A DNA stretch of 64,000 nt from a virus (Duplodnaviria; Caudoviricetes). The first letter of the stretch is position 1; each line of letters begins with the position of its first letter. The stretch is from positions 1 to 64,000 of IMG/VR virus record IMGVR_UViG_2924263452_000001. The stretch is one strand, 5' to 3'. The notes beneath the pieces were generated by a model. That model saw nothing but the letters and a program-made list of their open reading frames with translations. It did not search any database and was not told where the DNA came from. The position numbers and the translations under genes are program-made. Shown here in pieces: positions 392-44,095 of the stretch.

Positions 392-2113
392 TTAATTATG
401 CATTCTTCTCAGCGATAGCTGCCTGTGCTGCGGTGAACAAAATGCGGAAACTTTTGCCCCTCTTTTTCGTTTCCCATCAACTAAACACCCCATAGGACTT
501 TCTTCTGGATTAAACCGCAAATACCAATCGAATCCATCTTTTCTTGCAATTATTTTTTCCACAAAAGCTTCAATTACTGACTCTGGTATGTCTGCATCGC
601 TATCAAAGTTAGTGTATTGATCCAAAGCATATTTTAAAATAGTTATCTTTTCTTTTGAAGTAACTTCGTCAATCTCACTTTCAATTTCACTTGGTTCTAA
701 TTCCGCAAGTTCTTTTTTTAACTGAGAGATGCTGTTTTCTGTGCTTTCCTTCTTTAATATGAAGATATCTCTTGCAAGTTCTCCATCAGCACGCATTTCA
801 ATTAAGTTGTCAAGTCGTTTCAGGAGTTTCTGTAATTCTTCTTTTTTCTGATTAATTATATCTGTATTGTCGCATACTTCCTCTTCATCGTCAATATGCT
901 TCTCTAACATAGATTCAGCCAGCGATAAAACTTGATCCGTGTCAGAAAGATAATTCTTAAAAATATACTTAGCCATCATCTGCAGTTTCCATCCGGCAAT
1001 CATTGGAGTTTGGCATATACCATCAATCGGCAATCCCTTATTCAGTCTAGTTCTTACTGTTCCGGTTCTAATGGAACTATAGCACTGATACCCATATTGT
1101 TTTCCCTCTGTCGTATTGTGCCACATTTTACGGTTGAATTTATGCCCGCATTCGCATTCAAGCAGTTTCACCCACACATCGCTAGGTGGTTTTTCGCCAT
1201 ACATACGTTGACCGGAAGTGTCTACTGATAAAGTTTTTCTGCGACTATTTATCCTTTTTTGTGCTTGGTCGTATTCTTCTTCTGTGATAATCGGTTTATG
1301 ATTTCCTCTTACCTGTGTAAATTCCATATCACCAAAATTGCGTATTTTCTTTTGTTCCAAGAAATCTGGTGTAAATTCCTTATGATATGTAATAATGCCA
1401 CAATAAAAAGAATTGCGTAGTATTTTAGAGATATTACTTACATGCCAATTTGATTTCCCCATAGCAGTTAAACGCCCGGCTTTTTCCAGCTCAAACTGAA
1501 TTTTTCGCATTCCCCAACCGTCCAAATACCAATCAAAAATCATTCTGACAGTTTTCGCCTGTTCCGGATTTATAACCATATCTTTACCGACACGATCATA
1601 TCCAAGTATGTTGCCATTTCCATAGAAAACTCCATTTTCCATAGAAGTCTGCTGCCCGGATTTTACACGAACTGATGTTTTGCGGCTCTCATCTTGTGCC
1701 AAAGTTGCCATTATAGTTAAGCGTAGTTCTCCATCACCATCAAAAGTTTTAATGTTATCATTCAGGAAAAATACTTCTACACCTTTGCTTTTTAGTTCTC
1801 TTGTATATTGAAGCGTATCAACAGTGTTTCGGGCAAAACGTGATACTTCTCTGGTTAGTATAAGGTCAAAATTGCCACTTGACGCGTCTTGGATCATCTG
1901 CATAAATTGAGGTCTTTTCTTCGCAGAAGTCCCAGTAATACCTTCATCTACATACATTTTTACAATGTCCCACTCAGGATGTTGTTGTAAAATTGGTTTG
2001 TACCAGTCTTTTTGGTTTTCAAGTGCTGATAATTGTGCTTCGTGTTCAGTTGAAACACGCGCATAAATTACAACTTTTCGGCTGGTTGGTTTTTGATTGT
2101 AAATATCATACAT
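392..2113 (-). CDS. Large serine recombinase (phage integrase)
   Basis: YARVST catalytic motif, SRFARN, recombinase domain, CECG zinc ribbon, coiled coil. Confidence 0.95.
   Translation of the reverse strand: MYDIYNQKPTSRKVVIYARVSTEHEAQLSALENQKDWYKPILQQHPEWDIVKMYVDEGITGTSAKKRPQFMQMIQDASSGNFDLILTREVSRFARNTVDTLQYTRELKSKGVEVFFLNDNIKTFDGDGELRLTIMATLAQDESRKTSVRVKSGQQTSMENGVFYGNGNILGYDRVGKDMVINPEQAKTVRMIFDWYLDGWGMRKIQFELEKAGRLTAMGKSNWHVSNISKILRNSFYCGIITYHKEFTPDFLEQKKIRNFGDMEFTQVRGNHKPIITEEEYDQAQKRINSRRKTLSVDTSGQRMYGEKPPSDVWVKLLECECGHKFNRKMWHNTTEGKQYGYQCYSSIRTGTVRTRLNKGLPIDGICQTPMIAGWKLQMMAKYIFKNYLSDTDQVLSLAESMLEKHIDDEEEVCDNTDIINQKKEELQKLLKRLDNLIEMRADGELARDIFILKKESTENSISQLKKELAELEPSEIESEIDEVTSKEKITILKYALDQYTNFDSDADIPESVIEAFVEKIIARKDGFDWYLRFNPEESPMGCLVDGKRKRGAKVSAFCSPQHRQLSLRRMHN
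396..434 (-). other. Probable prophage att junction; displaced 3' end of host pyruvate phosphate dikinase
   Basis: An alternative minus frame reads AAQAAIAEKNA* (396-431), like the PPDK C-terminus (RLAAAQAA...). The similarity stops abruptly at about 432. Confidence 0.6.
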
Positions 2114-39086: not shown

Positions 39087-39819
39087 TATTTATATAGTTC
39101 TCTTTGTTTCAAATCATATATGTAATAATAGCTTTGATTATCTCTCTGTCTGTGTCTGTGTCTAAACTTTGGAAATATTGTACAGATATCTTTTTCGCAC
39201 CTTTATCTCTCAACTCGTCCATTTCTTTATTTACTGTTTCGCAAAACTCCTCTTCTGTTTGACATCTAATATATGGTATAGTTACCTTATGATCTATGAT
39301 AGATTTTCTGTAGATTAATTTGGCTTTATAATTCAATTTTTATTCCTCACTACTCTATATTTTGAAGTATCTTCTCCAAACTGAATACCAAGATTATTTA
39401 ACTGTTTAATTGCAACATCTCTTTCAAACACTATTTGCTCATATGCAAACCCCATTGAGATCAATGTTTTTATCAGTTTTGAATACTCTTCGCTTTGGCT
39501 CTTTAAAAGCTCATTCAGCTTTTTATCGAACTCCTTGTTACTGAGAACTCCTGCTTCAAGTCGCAACTTATTCAATCTGCTTTTTATAAGATTCGGACAC
39601 CAATCTGGGACTTTTGACCACTTTCTCAAATCCCAGTCATCTGATACAATAAGTCGAGGTTTTCCGTTTTTTAGAACTTCTTTGCAGTACGCACCTACTT
39701 CATGATCCCATGAATCTGCAGTAAGTATTCTGTCAACCAAACAACTATTGCAGTCCAAACAATTATCAATGATTTTTGTGCATGTATTCATAGTTCATTC
39801 CTCCTATTTTATTTATTTC

Positions 39820-39976
39820 TTACTGGCTTTCTTTTTATTAACAACTATATAACCAAGTGCATATCCGTGAGTTCCGGCACACAATGTAGGGGAAAGCCCC
39901 CCCATGTTCTATAAATTGTTCCAGCTTGTGAATTACCAGTTGAAAGATTTCCAACTTTGAGCACCTTCTTATTCAT
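39820..39976 (-). pseudogene. Free-standing MTase target-recognition module E, out of frame at G7
   Basis: MNKKVLKVGNLSTGNSQAGTIYRTWG / LSPTLCAGTHGYALGYI; in frame with G5 or G8 (C-run 39897-39903). Confidence 0.7.
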
Positions 39977-40143
39977 GTTTTCTCCTGACGATTATTTTCG
40001 GCTGTCTTTGCCCCCCCCATCATCGTTGAAAGAGTAGGTGCTAATCCTTCTATAGAATAAATTCTTTTGATTATGTCAAGACCTTTTATATCTAATCGTC
40101 CTAATACCTTTATTTTTGGTTGTTGATTAATTGATTTCTTCAT
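39969..40143 (-). pseudogene. Free-standing MTase target-recognition module D, out of frame at G8
   Basis: RIYSIEGLAPTLSTMMGG / QRQPKII; in frame with G7 (C-run 40011-40018). Confidence 0.7.
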
Positions 40144-40536
40144 ACAATCTATCCAATCCTTTTTCAAACGCTCCGATACCAGAGAAAAAGCTACTTACCT
40201 TTAAATCTTTGAAAAGATACGGCATTGCCTGATAAAGATTTTTATAAATGTGATACAGAACTCCCACACAAATAGAATTTCCTGCCTGCTTGTAGAGCTG
40301 TGTGTCTGACATTCCAGCTTCTTTGGCTTTATCAAAATCTTCATCTGAAAAATCCATCAATCTCCAACATTCTCTTGGTGTCAAACGGCGAATACCATAA
40401 TCTTCAATATTTACATCATTTTCCACAATCACTCTTTTATCTCCTCCTGCATTAATCGTCCGGATAGTGCCAAAAAGCCCCCCTTGAACGTTCTCATTCC
40501 TTCATCGCATCTTCGTTCACAAATATATCTGTTCAT
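40127..40536 (-). CDS. Small subunit of the split, permuted C5-MTase (motifs IX, X, I) with a G6-gated N-terminal module
   Basis: RRLTPRECWRLM, QAGNS, C-terminal FFSGIGAFEKG; internal GGAGG+GTG start at 40432; upstream ATG 40536 in frame only with G7 (C-run 40478-40483). Confidence 0.8.
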
Positions 40537-40537
40537 A

Positions 40538-41494
40538 CTATTCCCTTCTGGTTGGTTTCTGTATAATCACCGCATTCATACTCTGTTTGCCAAATCCTTT
40601 ATAATCTCTTGCCATAAGTGTATTTGCACAATTGGTTATATGATTTACATGGTTTGCATAATCACTTACAATTACTCCTTGACGATATTTTTCGTCTGTA
40701 TCAGATCCCACATGTGGCGATCTAATGAACAGCCCCCCCATGTCTGATTGTATGAGAATAGGATCTATACAGTTTTCCACTGTCAATCATTTCCTGTAAT
40801 GCCTTTTTCTCTTTGGCTGAATCAACGTAATATTTATCTGGCACGTTTTCTTCATTCTCAAGAATATCGTACATTGTTATGTCACTTTCAAACCCATCTG
40901 GAAGGTTGAAATTGCCGTTATCAAGTTCTTTTCTGATGATTACAAGATATAATCGTTCTCTGTTCTGTGGAATACCAAAATCTTTGGCATTCAGAACTTT
41001 CCAGTAAGTGTTATATCCATATTCGTGAAGCTCTTCGATAAACATATCGAATGTGTTTCTGAAAGATTTTCCTACAATATTTTTTACATTCTCATAAATT
41101 CCCCAGGCTGGCTTATTTGCTCGAACAACACGCAGCCATTCAACCAACAGAGAAGAACGTGTCTTATCAAGGTTTTCGCTCCCACAATTAGGACACTTAT
41201 CTCTTTTTGACCAATGAACTGTCAAAGGGTTATATGTAAATGGCTCTCCGTCATCACCTGTACAATCTTTACAAGTCCATCCACTACCAGCTTTCTTTCC
41301 AGCAATACTGAAATCTTGGCATGGCGATCCCCCACAAATCATATTGAATGGTAACATGCTGTTTTCATCAACTTTCGTAATATCTCCAATGTTAAGGTTT
41401 GGATCAACTCCATGAATAGCACAATATGAAGTTGCGGCAAACTTATCAACTTCGCAAAAATTTACCAGTTTCCAACTTTGAATTAATTTTTCAT
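40538..41494 (-). CDS. Large subunit of the split C5-MTase (motifs II-VIII); start codon lies in an inverted segment, C-terminus set by a G tract
   Basis: FCEVDK, GDI, GGSPCQDFS, ENV, PQNRER; C-run 40733-40739. Confidence 0.85.
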
Positions 41495-41652
41495 TGTAAA
41501 ACTATTGTAGAAAAGTGCTGATTTAGTGGCATTTATACTATATTTTGTATGCTATATGTATATGTTGACACTAAATATAGCGTTTATTGCCACTAAAAAT
41601 CAGGTAAAAGAGGTATAAAAATTGGAAAATAACGATAAAAAATTAATTTAAT
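41477..41652. other. Putative invertible segment 4 (spacer AATTAA), OFF
   Basis: ATGAAA-AATTAA-TTCAAA (minus, 41477-41494) and ATAAAA-AATTAA-TTTAAT (plus, 41635-41652); AAGAGGT RBS and TTG (41622) on the plus strand. Confidence 0.85.
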
Positions 41653-43225: not shown

Positions 43226-43956
43226 TCATCCCCACTGATCCGCCATTGCTTTGGCGATTCCTGGGAATGTTTTACTTCTTGCTTTTGCTCTCCCGGCTTG
43301 ACCACCAGTTGTATTTTTGATTCCCTCACACCAACCAATCCTTTTGCCTTTGCATTTTTTACCTTGGCAAATATATTGTGGCTCTGGAACTGGCAAATTA
43401 TTTTTTCTGTCAAGCACTGGAAGATTTTTAAGCCATAAACATGTTCTCTTCTGGAAATAATTCTCCGCATCATTCTTGTTACTAGCAAAATAATACGGAT
43501 GAACAATTTGATTTGGCTTTCTCCAATGTGTATTCATATACCCCACTGGATTTTCAATTGCAATTTTCTCACAATCTGCATTTGCTATTTTTAAGAAAAA
43601 TTGTTCTGCCTCATTTCTTTTTTCTATTCTAGCGGCTACTTTTTCTGGTGGATTACACTTTAATGAGTAATGCCGTGTTCCTGCAGATGTAAGATATGTA
43701 CATGGTGGAAATGCAATTATTATATCCCATTTCCCGTCTATCTTATGTTTGATTCCATCTGTTGTCTCGAACTCACAATTTCCGTTCAACAAAGGAATAA
43801 CATCTCCCATAACGTGCCATTCTGGATGATTACCAGAACATTCAATTATGTCACAGCTATATGCTTCATGTCCTTTATTTCTAAACTCAATACATACTCT
43901 TTGTGATTCTTCACACGCCACTAATATTTTTAATCTATGTTGAAAACAACTTTCAT
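43226..43956 (-). CDS. Phage C5-cytosine MTase-like protein; true start lies in an inverted segment
   Basis: KILVACEESQ, AFPPC, ENPVG, RSKTFPGIAKAMADQW. Confidence 0.8.
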
Positions 43957-44095
43957 TTTATAGTTTAAAAATACGATGGTTGTCGTATTAGAAATCAGAT
44001 ATGAAAGAGTTTCTTCCTATTATATATAGAAACAGAATTGTGAAAGGACGATTAGAACGTGAGTTCAGAGACAGTAGATAAAAGTTGTTTTTTAT
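43939..44095. other. Putative invertible segment 5 (spacer GTTGTT), OFF
   Basis: ATGAAA-GTTGTT-TTCAAC (minus, 43939-43956) and ATAAAA-GTTGTT-TTTTAT (plus, 44078-44095); GAAAGGA RBS and GTG (44059) on the plus strand. Confidence 0.88.

Follow-up and report, generated by a model that had tools for sequence, protein, structure and literature searches.

A split and permuted multispecific DNA cytosine-5 methyltransferase of a large tailed phage, probably switched by start-codon inversion and poly-G runs

Introduction

When every target-recognition module of a phage methyltransferase locus is out of frame and the catalytic chain has no usable start codon, is the locus a dead gene or an enzyme that is switched? 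The question is raised by positions 39813-41652 (minus strand) of IMG/VR virus record IMGVR_UViG_2924263452_000001, a linear phage contig of 127,362 bp (~75% complete, 34% G+C) with genes almost all on the minus strand. The first 64 kb of this contig were analyzed and are referred to as the window. The locus is a DNA cytosine-5 methyltransferase (C5-MTase) operon of a large (~170 kb) tailed phage, and it puts known parts of a phase-variable multispecific phage C5-MTase into an unprecedented arrangement. We read it, with a probability of roughly 0.8, as a permuted, split, multispecific enzyme that is switched by inversion of its start codon and by runs of consecutive G (poly-G runs).

The C5-MTase family to which the locus belongs is large (thousands of database proteins) and, as far as we could find, undescribed. 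We did not find the architecture of the locus described in the published literature, and a blastn search against cultured phages returned only short matches to motifs IX-X. Metagenomes with related sequence (among sequencing runs) come from animal gut and wastewater, and the named relatives come from metagenome-assembled genomes (MAGs) labelled Lachnospiraceae, Clostridium and Clostridiaceae. The phage host is probably a member of the Clostridia.

We compared the locus with 13 related viral loci and with L022, a contig of a Clostridiaceae MAG. In 11 of the 13 viral loci (L002-L010, L013 and L014, the close relatives) the core is 89-97% identical and has the same split layout, and in the other two (L011 and L012) it is 62-63% identical. 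We also used the assembled contigs of four independent sequencing runs (X1, X2, X3 and X6).

A catalytic core that is split and permuted

The C5-MTase motifs I, IV (PCQ), VI (ENV), VIII (QxRxR), IX and X form a complete set across two chains, which are laid out as follows.

40722-41480, minus strand: large (catalytic) chain, motifs II-VIII (PF00145, E = 6.6e-44)
41459-41439, minus strand: motif II of the large chain
41333-41307, minus strand: motif IV of the large chain, GGSPCQDFS
41093-41079, minus strand: motif VI of the large chain, ENVKN
40967-40950, minus strand: motif VIII of the large chain, QNRERL
40127-40432, minus strand: small chain, 101 aa, motifs IX-X-I, GTG start behind AGGAGG
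40390-40367, minus strand: motif IX of the small chain, RRLTPREC
40288-40271, minus strand: motif X of the small chain, QAGNSI
40189-40163, minus strand: motif I, FFSGIGAFE, at the C-terminus of the small chain

The large chain lacks motif I, which is located only at the C-terminus of the small chain, and it has no usable start in the window orientation of an invertible segment described below. The small chain matches PF00145 at profile positions 269-323 (E = 7.4e-13). A first-pass annotation, made by a model from the letters alone, had proposed this division of the core into a large subunit with II-VIII and a small one with IX-X and then I; Pfam and an alignment to M.HhaI agree with it.

The same order was found in relatives in which the enzyme is a single open reading frame (ORF). 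In L011, L012 and L022, the ORF starts at a TTG 6-10 residues ahead of motif II and runs through motifs II-VIII, three or four tandem target-recognition domains (TRDs), motifs IX, X and I, and the stop. When the L011 ORF was compared with M.HhaI (phmmer, PDB), it matched, in query order, residues 38-92, 94-203, 232-258, 270-318 and then 11-29 of M.HhaI. The match to residues 232-258 is a TRD (RIYST..TL...GGG), and residues 11-29 are motif I, which lies at the query C-terminus. A search of protein databases with the small chain retrieved 8,642 proteins at E <= 0.001. Among the best 150 cluster representatives (50% identity), 150 out of 150 match through the motif I region, either as short split chains or at the C-terminus of single chains of 370-880 aa, and the IX-X-I order occurs in at least 150 such clusters. 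An N-terminus 6-10 residues before motif II together with a C-terminus after motif I was found in 14 out of 14 loci and in at least 150 clusters.

Fold prediction covers a relative, P0166 (383 aa), and not the split chains of the window. The AlphaFold model has a predicted local distance difference test score (pLDDT) of 85.9 overall and >95 in the core. Its C-terminal motif I strand and helix lie inside the fold with pLDDT >95, and the top Foldseek matches of the model are M.HhaI structures (E = 5e-18). Judged from these comparisons of sequences, the permutation, with its break between motifs I and II, is real and ancestral.

Engineered permutants with new N-termini at residues 35 and 33 (cp35M.MpeI and cp33M.SssI) are active, and the split permutant fragments [280-61] and [62-279] complement one another (PMC5944983). 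A REBASE-wide survey did not meet a break between motifs I and II in natural enzymes (PMC5944983). As far as we could find, the topology is new among natural enzymes, and the activity of these engineered constructs makes it biochemically plausible.

Bacillus phage Deep Blue (L023, NC_031056.1 74203-76485) has two full-length C5-MTase genes that abut in the same frame with no gap, such that motif X of the first runs into motif I of the second. Abutting genes of this type are a plausible precursor of the X-to-I fusion. Deep Blue and its relatives also gave the matches reaching motif I in a tblastn search of IX-X-I against cultured phages; in Deep Blue, the one record examined, the two abutting full-length MTase genes led us to reject a permuted form.

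The core also carries insertions. Between motifs IV and VI, a CxxC...CxxC zinc-ribbon insert (window 41180-41300, large-chain residues ~68-105) occurs family-wide; its Cys residues are invariant in the family alignment, and its Pfam matches to HypA and zinc-ribbon profiles are weak. In L014 (5167-5758), an insertion of ~560 bp with an HNH-type endonuclease frame separates motifs IX and X of the small chain. The host frame is open through it, and it looks like a mobile intron or homing element. An intein-like insertion lies inside motif IV, between GGSPC and QDFS, in L022 (3503-4100), P0138 and P0176.

Four target-recognition modules, each with a poly-G run

The window holds four TRD modules (TRD1, TRD2, TRD3 and TRD5) with one G run each. 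The first-pass annotation had counted about five specificities; the fifth module, TRD4, is a 64-aa cistron without a G run that occurs only in relatives and is absent from the window. Runs are named here by the number of G, and a run is called ON when it is in frame and OFF when it is not.

40538-40732, minus strand: TRD1 frame (...RSPHVGSDTDEKYRQG...NTLMARDYKGFGKQSMNAV...), continuous with the large chain only at in-frame lengths of run 1
40733-40739, minus strand: run 1, G7, OFF, after motif VIII at the entry to TRD1
40429-40536, minus strand: TRD2 leader ORF, ATG at 40536 (MNRYICERRCDEGMRTFKGG...), contains run 2
40478-40483, minus strand: run 2, G6, OFF, in the TRD2 leader
39969-40143, minus strand: mini-gene TRD3, ATG 40143-40141 (...RIYSIEGLAPTLSTMMGG...), contains run 3
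40011-40018, minus strand: run 3, G8, OFF, in TRD3
39813-39976, minus strand: mini-gene TRD5, ATG 39976-39974 behind AGGAG (MNKKVLKVGNLSTGNSQAGTIYRTWGG...), contains run 4
39897-39903, minus strand: run 4, G7, OFF, in TRD5

The annotation had placed four out-of-frame G tracts at these coordinates, and both coordinates and frames check out. It had also read run 1 as choosing among three frames. All three frames are as described: at G7 the large chain is truncated, with its stop at 40724-40722 (...HGGAVH and stop), and at G6 it reads into TRD1 (...NTLMARDYKGFG...), as seen in L013. G8, however, is a truncation with a short dead-end tail (seen in L003) and yields no third product of evident function. 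The proposed products of the other three sites were borne out. At site 2, G7 fuses the MNRYICERRCDEG leader to GTIRTINAGG and motifs IX-X-I, as seen in L002, L005 and L006, which gives a TRD2-IX-X-I fusion of ~136-139 aa from the leader ATG; the small chain has its own AGGAGG-GTG start besides. At site 3, G7 completes TRD3 (...GGQRQPKIIVRRKHE and stop), and at site 4, G8 completes TRD5 (...LSPTLCAGTHGYALGYIVV... and stop).

As far as the reading frames tell, this layout insulates the core chains from changes in run length. Because run 1 lies after motif VIII, the II-VIII chain is intact at both OFF lengths. When run 2 is OFF, the TGA stop of the leader and the GTG of the small chain overlap (GTGA, 40432-40429), behind AGGAGG. 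When run 3 is OFF, the stop of TRD3 overlaps the ATG of TRD5 (ATGA, 39976-39973), and when it is ON, the stop is 3 nt further.

Several comparisons support the view that the modules of the window are true TRDs of the multispecific type, as had been claimed, and long multispecific C5-MTases contain these modules in cis. TRD4 is 60-90% identical to internal segments of hundreds of PF00145 proteins of 400-900 aa, and in the two enzymes of normal motif order that were examined, P0036 and P0002, its place is between motif VIII and motif IX. The TRD1 type (ARDYKGFGNQ) is found in cis in P0002 and P0138, and the TRD5 type in P0011. Both mini-ORFs (TRD3 and TRD5) bear T-L signatures.

TRDs that stand after motif I appear in more than one form. 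They are in frame and fused in P0019, P0146, P0231, P0254 and P0176; in P0166, motif VIII passes almost directly into motif IX and the sole TRD follows motif I. TRD-only proteins of 110-170 aa are common (P0094 has 193 members), and the exact in-frame 57-aa TRD3 protein is on record from 272 contigs. A ribosome-binding site (RBS) and an ATG are conserved ahead of every TRD cistron, and in L008-L010 the in-frame TRDs are free cistrons only.

In L011 (5500-5560) and L022 (5395-5450), a conserved A_AAT_TTT heptamer precedes the stop of the main ORF by seven codons; after it, a TRD frame without a start overlaps the end of the main ORF in the -1 frame. The arrangement is a textbook one for -1 frameshifting and suggests a candidate programmed frameshift that would append TRDs after motif I.

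Expression of the TRDs after motif I appears to take several routes (fusion, probably frameshifting, and separate cistrons), and this variety fits docking on the core without a fixed covalent path. Action in trans of the free TRDs would be the most economical reading for this clade. We also considered cassette recombination between the runs (sites 1 and 4 share ACATGGGGGGGCT) and rejected it because it would delete motifs IX-X-I.

Run lengths differ between near-identical phages

Long G runs are rare in this genome outside the locus. The 127,362-bp genome has seven C/G runs of at least 6; three runs are of at least 7, and all three fall, along with one G6, within the same 843 bp, with G on the coding strand throughout. 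This clustering of four runs is far beyond chance (~0.02-0.05 expected per 843 bp). GGG makes up ~11% of Gly codons.

Across the 11 close relatives, the runs stand at the same codons with lengths of G5-G8. The states at the four sites are as follows.

Site 1, in-frame length G6 or G7 depending on the flank: ON in L005 (interrupted), L006, L013 and L014; out of frame in the window, L002, L003, L004 and L007; TRD1 deleted in L008-L010
Site 2, in-frame length G7: ON in L002, L005 and L006; out of frame in the other nine loci
Site 3, in-frame length G7: ON in L003-L007; locked ON as GGGAGGG in L008-L010; out of frame in the window and L014 (G8), L013 (G6) and L002 (G5)
Site 4, in-frame length G8 or G7+A: ON as G8 in L009, L010 and L013; ON as G7+A in L002 and L008; out of frame in the window, L003, L004, L005, L006, L007 and L014

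At site 1, the in-frame length is G6 with the flank of the window type (L013) and G7 with a CAAGG flank (L006 and L014). L003 and L004 have G8 there, and L005 has an interrupted run that is locked ON. TRD1 is in frame with the core in L005, L006, L013 and L014 (ORFs of 320-328 aa), and L009 and L010 have TRD2 fixed out of frame. An in-frame G8 occurs in L012.

The first-pass annotation had asked for tract lengths to be compared across homologues, and held that invariant in-frame tracts in accurate reads would speak against switching. In the relatives, positions are conserved while lengths vary in both directions, ON and OFF. Run lengths differ on flanks that are identical at 190-198 of 200 positions; at site 4, G6, G7 and G8 all occur on flanks identical at 196-198 of 200. 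Pure G runs are kept at the same codons across lineages that are ~10% diverged. Counting the inversion described below, the 12 loci (the window and 11 relatives) show 9 different switch combinations. Among database proteins, TRD3 includes G10 variants (+1 Gly). In the contigs of the four sequencing runs, site 3 is G7 and in frame in all four (4/4), and one sequencing run has G6 at sites 1 and 4. The high-depth contigs of X2 break exactly at three G runs (with 30-nt overlaps) and at the inverted repeats, a hint of branching within one population. By comparison among these loci, the poly-G runs are shown to act as contingency switches for single TRDs, in so far as assembled DNA can tell.

Poly-G switching seems to be widespread in the family because a more distant, G+C-richer locus, L024, bears runs of G9 and G10: the G9 (336-344) breaks the catalytic chain just after motif IV, and the G10 (1340-1349) is in frame in a TRD fused after motif I.

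Purifying selection on the reading frames

We computed the ratio of nonsynonymous to synonymous substitution rates (dN/dS) as pooled pairwise values among the relatives.

Large chain (core): 0.064
Small chain: 0.056
TRD3: 0.23 before the run, 0.115 after the run
TRD4: 0.07
TRD5, before the run: 0.08
Neighbouring gene: 0.17

When this DNA is read in either of the other frames, dN/dS is >1 and stops are many. These values support the view that the mini-TRD genes are under purifying selection as in-frame proteins (dN/dS 0.07-0.24).

An invertible segment that carries the start codon

The start of the large chain lies in a segment between inverted repeats.

41481-41648: invertible segment, 168 bp including its arms, AT-rich, in OFF orientation in the window
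41481-41491 and 41638-41648: 11-bp inverted repeats, AATTAATTTTT and AAAAATTAATT, respectively
41477-41494 and 41635-41652: 18-bp recombinase-type sites that enclose the repeats
41607-41651, plus strand: RBS AAAGAGG (41607-41613) and TTG (41622-41624)

In the window orientation, the TTG faces away from the MTase and opens an ORF of 9 codons only. The catalytic frame is left without a start because the TTG points the other way. In the flipped form, AAAGAGG-N8-TTG reads MENNDKKLIQSW... in frame into motif II of the large chain. In L002, L014, L006 and L007, (K)LENNDKK or LENDDKK is continuous into KLVNFCEVDKF. In L002 and L014, the inversion can be seen against both flanks; in L006 and L007, it can be seen against the MTase-side (low) flank, the sequence on the other side being unrelated. 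In L006 and L007, both arms have changed together to AATAATTTTTT. Of the sequencing runs, X2 and X3 also have contigs with the flipped form, joined at 41480/41481 and 41648/41649 with 11 letters shared; the contigs of X1 and X6 are colinear with the window. The segment occurs in nature in both orientations, with exact joints at the inverted repeats. A master inversion switch had been placed at 41477-41652 by the first-pass annotation: both orientations exist, and the segment that inverts is the shorter one at 41481-41648. At the level of sequence, each prediction of that annotation that could be checked was borne out.

Including the MTase pair, the window holds six inverted site pairs. The five others (22485/22654, 24364/24481, 26504/26965, 43939/44078 and 48716/48855) share arms of the form AAA-N6-TTTYAT with 6-bp cores that are specific to each pair. 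A second inverton (43957-44077, sites 43939-44095) lies upstream of another MTase-like gene (43226-43921), and its flipping, seen in L002 and L004, does not follow that of the MTase inverton.

The contig has a single tyrosine recombinase, a protein of 240 aa without an N-terminal arm-binding domain, encoded on the minus strand at ~97.2-98.0 kb of the genome (G000; L015:1456-2178). It is 94% conserved in three inverton-bearing relatives (G001-G003) and absent from the 98%-complete genome of L012 (G005); in the contig of L012, the start region of the MTase (Shine-Dalgarno sequence and TTG) is in the expressed orientation. A large serine recombinase (a 573-codon open frame with a resolvase domain match at window 1631-2074) is more likely an integrase.

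Discussion

Several observations weigh against reading this locus as a switched, modular enzyme, or leave parts of that reading less secure. Every switch is OFF in the contig of the window, which taken alone also fits a dead gene. Switching of run length within one phage population would be expected, and the comparison that points to it was made from assembled contigs. TRD5 has too few substitutions after its run for an informative dN/dS. In the AlphaFold model of P0166, the TRD after motif I (335-383) has pLDDT <50 and so tells nothing about docking; TRD4 modelled alone has a mean pLDDT of 56.6 (51-row alignment), which speaks neither for nor against folding on its own. A promoter scan of the invertible segment in both orientations gave no more matches than shuffled sequence did. 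No promoter stands out in either orientation, so we rejected the label of promoter switch and call the segment a start-codon/RBS switch. The 240-aa tyrosine recombinase is a candidate invertase for all the invertons, linked to them by co-occurrence alone.

If the locus were a decaying pseudogene, homopolymers would be the first sites of frameshift and the variation among relatives would be neutral decay. The OFF state of all four runs and of the inverton in the window is what such decay would leave, as are the deletion of TRD1 in L008-L010 and the fixed out-of-frame TRD2 in L009 and L010. This account is nevertheless very unlikely, given dN/dS of 0.06 in both core chains and 0.07-0.24 in the mini-TRDs against >1 in the other frames. 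Moreover, every site is in frame in several relatives, interrupted alleles locked ON exist, and no module has further stops or frameshifts. Pure G runs persist at the same codons through ~10% divergence though GGG is a rare codon, and the overlaps of stop and start keep downstream cistrons coupled in both run states. That the true genes are in frame and the runs reflect errors of sequencing or assembly is hardly credible, even though the window is a metagenome assembly and some platforms are prone to misread runs of G7-G8. Lengths at these sites vary by as much as 3 bases, longer or shorter, across 11 other assemblies and the contigs of four independent runs, and an inversion cannot be explained as a base-calling error. 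Nor does coding density point to homopolymer frameshifts elsewhere: despite 188 T6 and 28 T7 runs in the genome, 83% of what lies outside the locus is covered by ORFs of at least 80 aa, and the assembly is for this reason not homopolymer-noisy.

Two further accounts accept the modules and differ over how they work. Transcriptional slippage can occur at coding-strand runs of 7-8 G, and the family appears to use ribosomal frameshifting elsewhere (L011 and L022), so the G runs might act at the level of RNA or protein, with polymerase or ribosome slippage giving a fixed ratio of products per genotype. We regard this as improbable: genotypes differ between near-identical phages and interrupted locked alleles exist, which is why we take the runs to be contingency loci at the level of DNA. 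The two levels are not exclusive. It is also possible, though unlikely, that everything else stands and the free TRD cistrons do not act in trans: they might work only when fused (by ribosomal or transcriptional slippage), be spare recombination cassettes, or be leftovers of a second tandem MTase copy. The covalent TRDs after motif I in P0019, P0146, P0231, P0254, P0176 and P0166 speak for it, as do the heptamer before the start-less TRD frame in L011 and L022, which suggests fusion by -1 frameshifting, and the tandem abutting genes of Deep Blue as a plausible precursor. On the other side, each mini-gene has a conserved RBS and ATG and its stop overlaps the next start, the 57-aa TRD3 protein is kept in that form on 272 contigs, and dN/dS is low. 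L008-L010 would be left without any usable TRD, and none of the flanking repeats that cassette exchange would use were seen.

We therefore favor a permuted, split, multispecific C5-MTase with two layers of switching. Specificity would come from small TRD modules like those of the multispecific MTases of Bacillus phages: TRD1 can be appended to the large chain, TRD2 can be prefixed to the small chain, and TRD3 and TRD5 (plus TRD4 in relatives) are separate, translationally coupled cistrons after motif I. Comparison of the loci shows both layers. In the first, the site-specific inversion of 168 bp would turn the whole enzyme on or off because the segment bears the RBS and TTG start of the catalytic chain. 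In the second, slippage would add or remove G and move a TRD into or out of frame while sparing the core chains. A TRD in frame would dock on the common core, either as part of a chain or as a subunit of its own, and add one methylation motif. With one motif per in-frame TRD, a phage population would probably hold many different methylation patterns. Such variety would hedge the phage's bets: methylation protects DNA in hosts with classical restriction enzymes and does harm in hosts whose restriction is methyl-dependent. We give somewhat better than even odds to the fuller claim that free TRDs of 50-65 aa are exchangeable C5-MTase specificity subunits, each phase-variable by poly-G under a start-codon inverton, with up to 2^4-2^5 methylation states per genotype, in a natural topology whose N-terminus lies between motifs I and II.

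Several known systems come close to parts of this one. The multispecific C5-MTases of Bacillus phages SPR, phi3T, rho11s and SPbeta (Trautner laboratory) have several small TRDs with a T-L/T-I signature on one core; each is a single polypeptide of motif order I-X that holds all its TRDs between VIII and IX and is not known to carry switches. Like them, the enzyme of the window is phage-encoded and has one catalytic core serving several independent TRDs, and its motifs IX-X are 67% identical to the SPR MTase. Unlike them, its core is split and permuted, TRD3 and TRD5 are separate cistrons after motif I, and there is a poly-G run per TRD. The split C5-MTases M.AquI (alpha/beta) and M.EcoHK31I consist of two polypeptides cut between motifs VIII and IX; they are not permuted, have a single specificity and are not known to possess separate TRD cistrons or switches. 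The window enzyme shares the cut between VIII and IX and differs in its permutation, TRD cistrons and switches.

In bacterial phasevarions (poly-G contingency loci of Campylobacter, Helicobacter, Neisseria and Haemophilus), which are cellular genes, one repeat whose length changes rapidly switches a whole MTase (type III mod, some type II). Here too a repeat lies inside the MTase frame and has ON and OFF lengths among relatives; in contrast, the locus belongs to a virus and has four runs, each switching one specificity module with the core intact. In invertible promoter switches (fimS, Bacteroides capsule promoters, C. difficile RecV), a tyrosine recombinase flips a short segment between inverted repeats. 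The likeness is that a downstream gene is switched by the flip and that several loci would share one recombinase. The difference is that what flips in this phage-borne system is an RBS and start codon including the first nine codons, and that no promoter was found in the scan of the segment.

Natural circularly permuted C5-MTases include M.BssHII, M.Alw26I, M2.Eco31I, M.Esp3I and M2.BsaI; in the M.BssHII type (Type H/J), the permutation site lies in the variable region and IX-X stand ahead of I-VIII (PMC5944983). As in natural and engineered permutants, the motif order of the window enzyme is circularly permuted with X ahead of I, but unlike in the M.BssHII type the break falls between motifs I and II. 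Specificity from a separate subunit is familiar from type I HsdS subunits and hsdS shufflons, which are epigenetic invertons (PMC7672463). On our reading, both systems take specificity from a separate exchangeable module or subunit, vary stochastically and involve site-specific recombinases; HsdS systems serve an amino-MTase with a coiled-coil scaffold and shuffle half-genes, whereas here the frames of independent TRD cistrons shift. To our knowledge, no free specificity subunit is known for C5-MTases.

The enzyme adds a new permutation class of C5-MTase, and its TRDs are possibly the first free specificity subunits for C5-MTases and potential parts for programmable methylation tools. The system is also a natural test of how multispecific C5-MTases use several TRDs with one core. 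Phage MTases are a main counter to host restriction, and the methylation they add also exposes DNA to methyl-dependent nucleases. If our reading is true, methylation that is randomised module by module hedges against both kinds of nuclease, and this would help to explain how large gut phages cope with diverse hosts.

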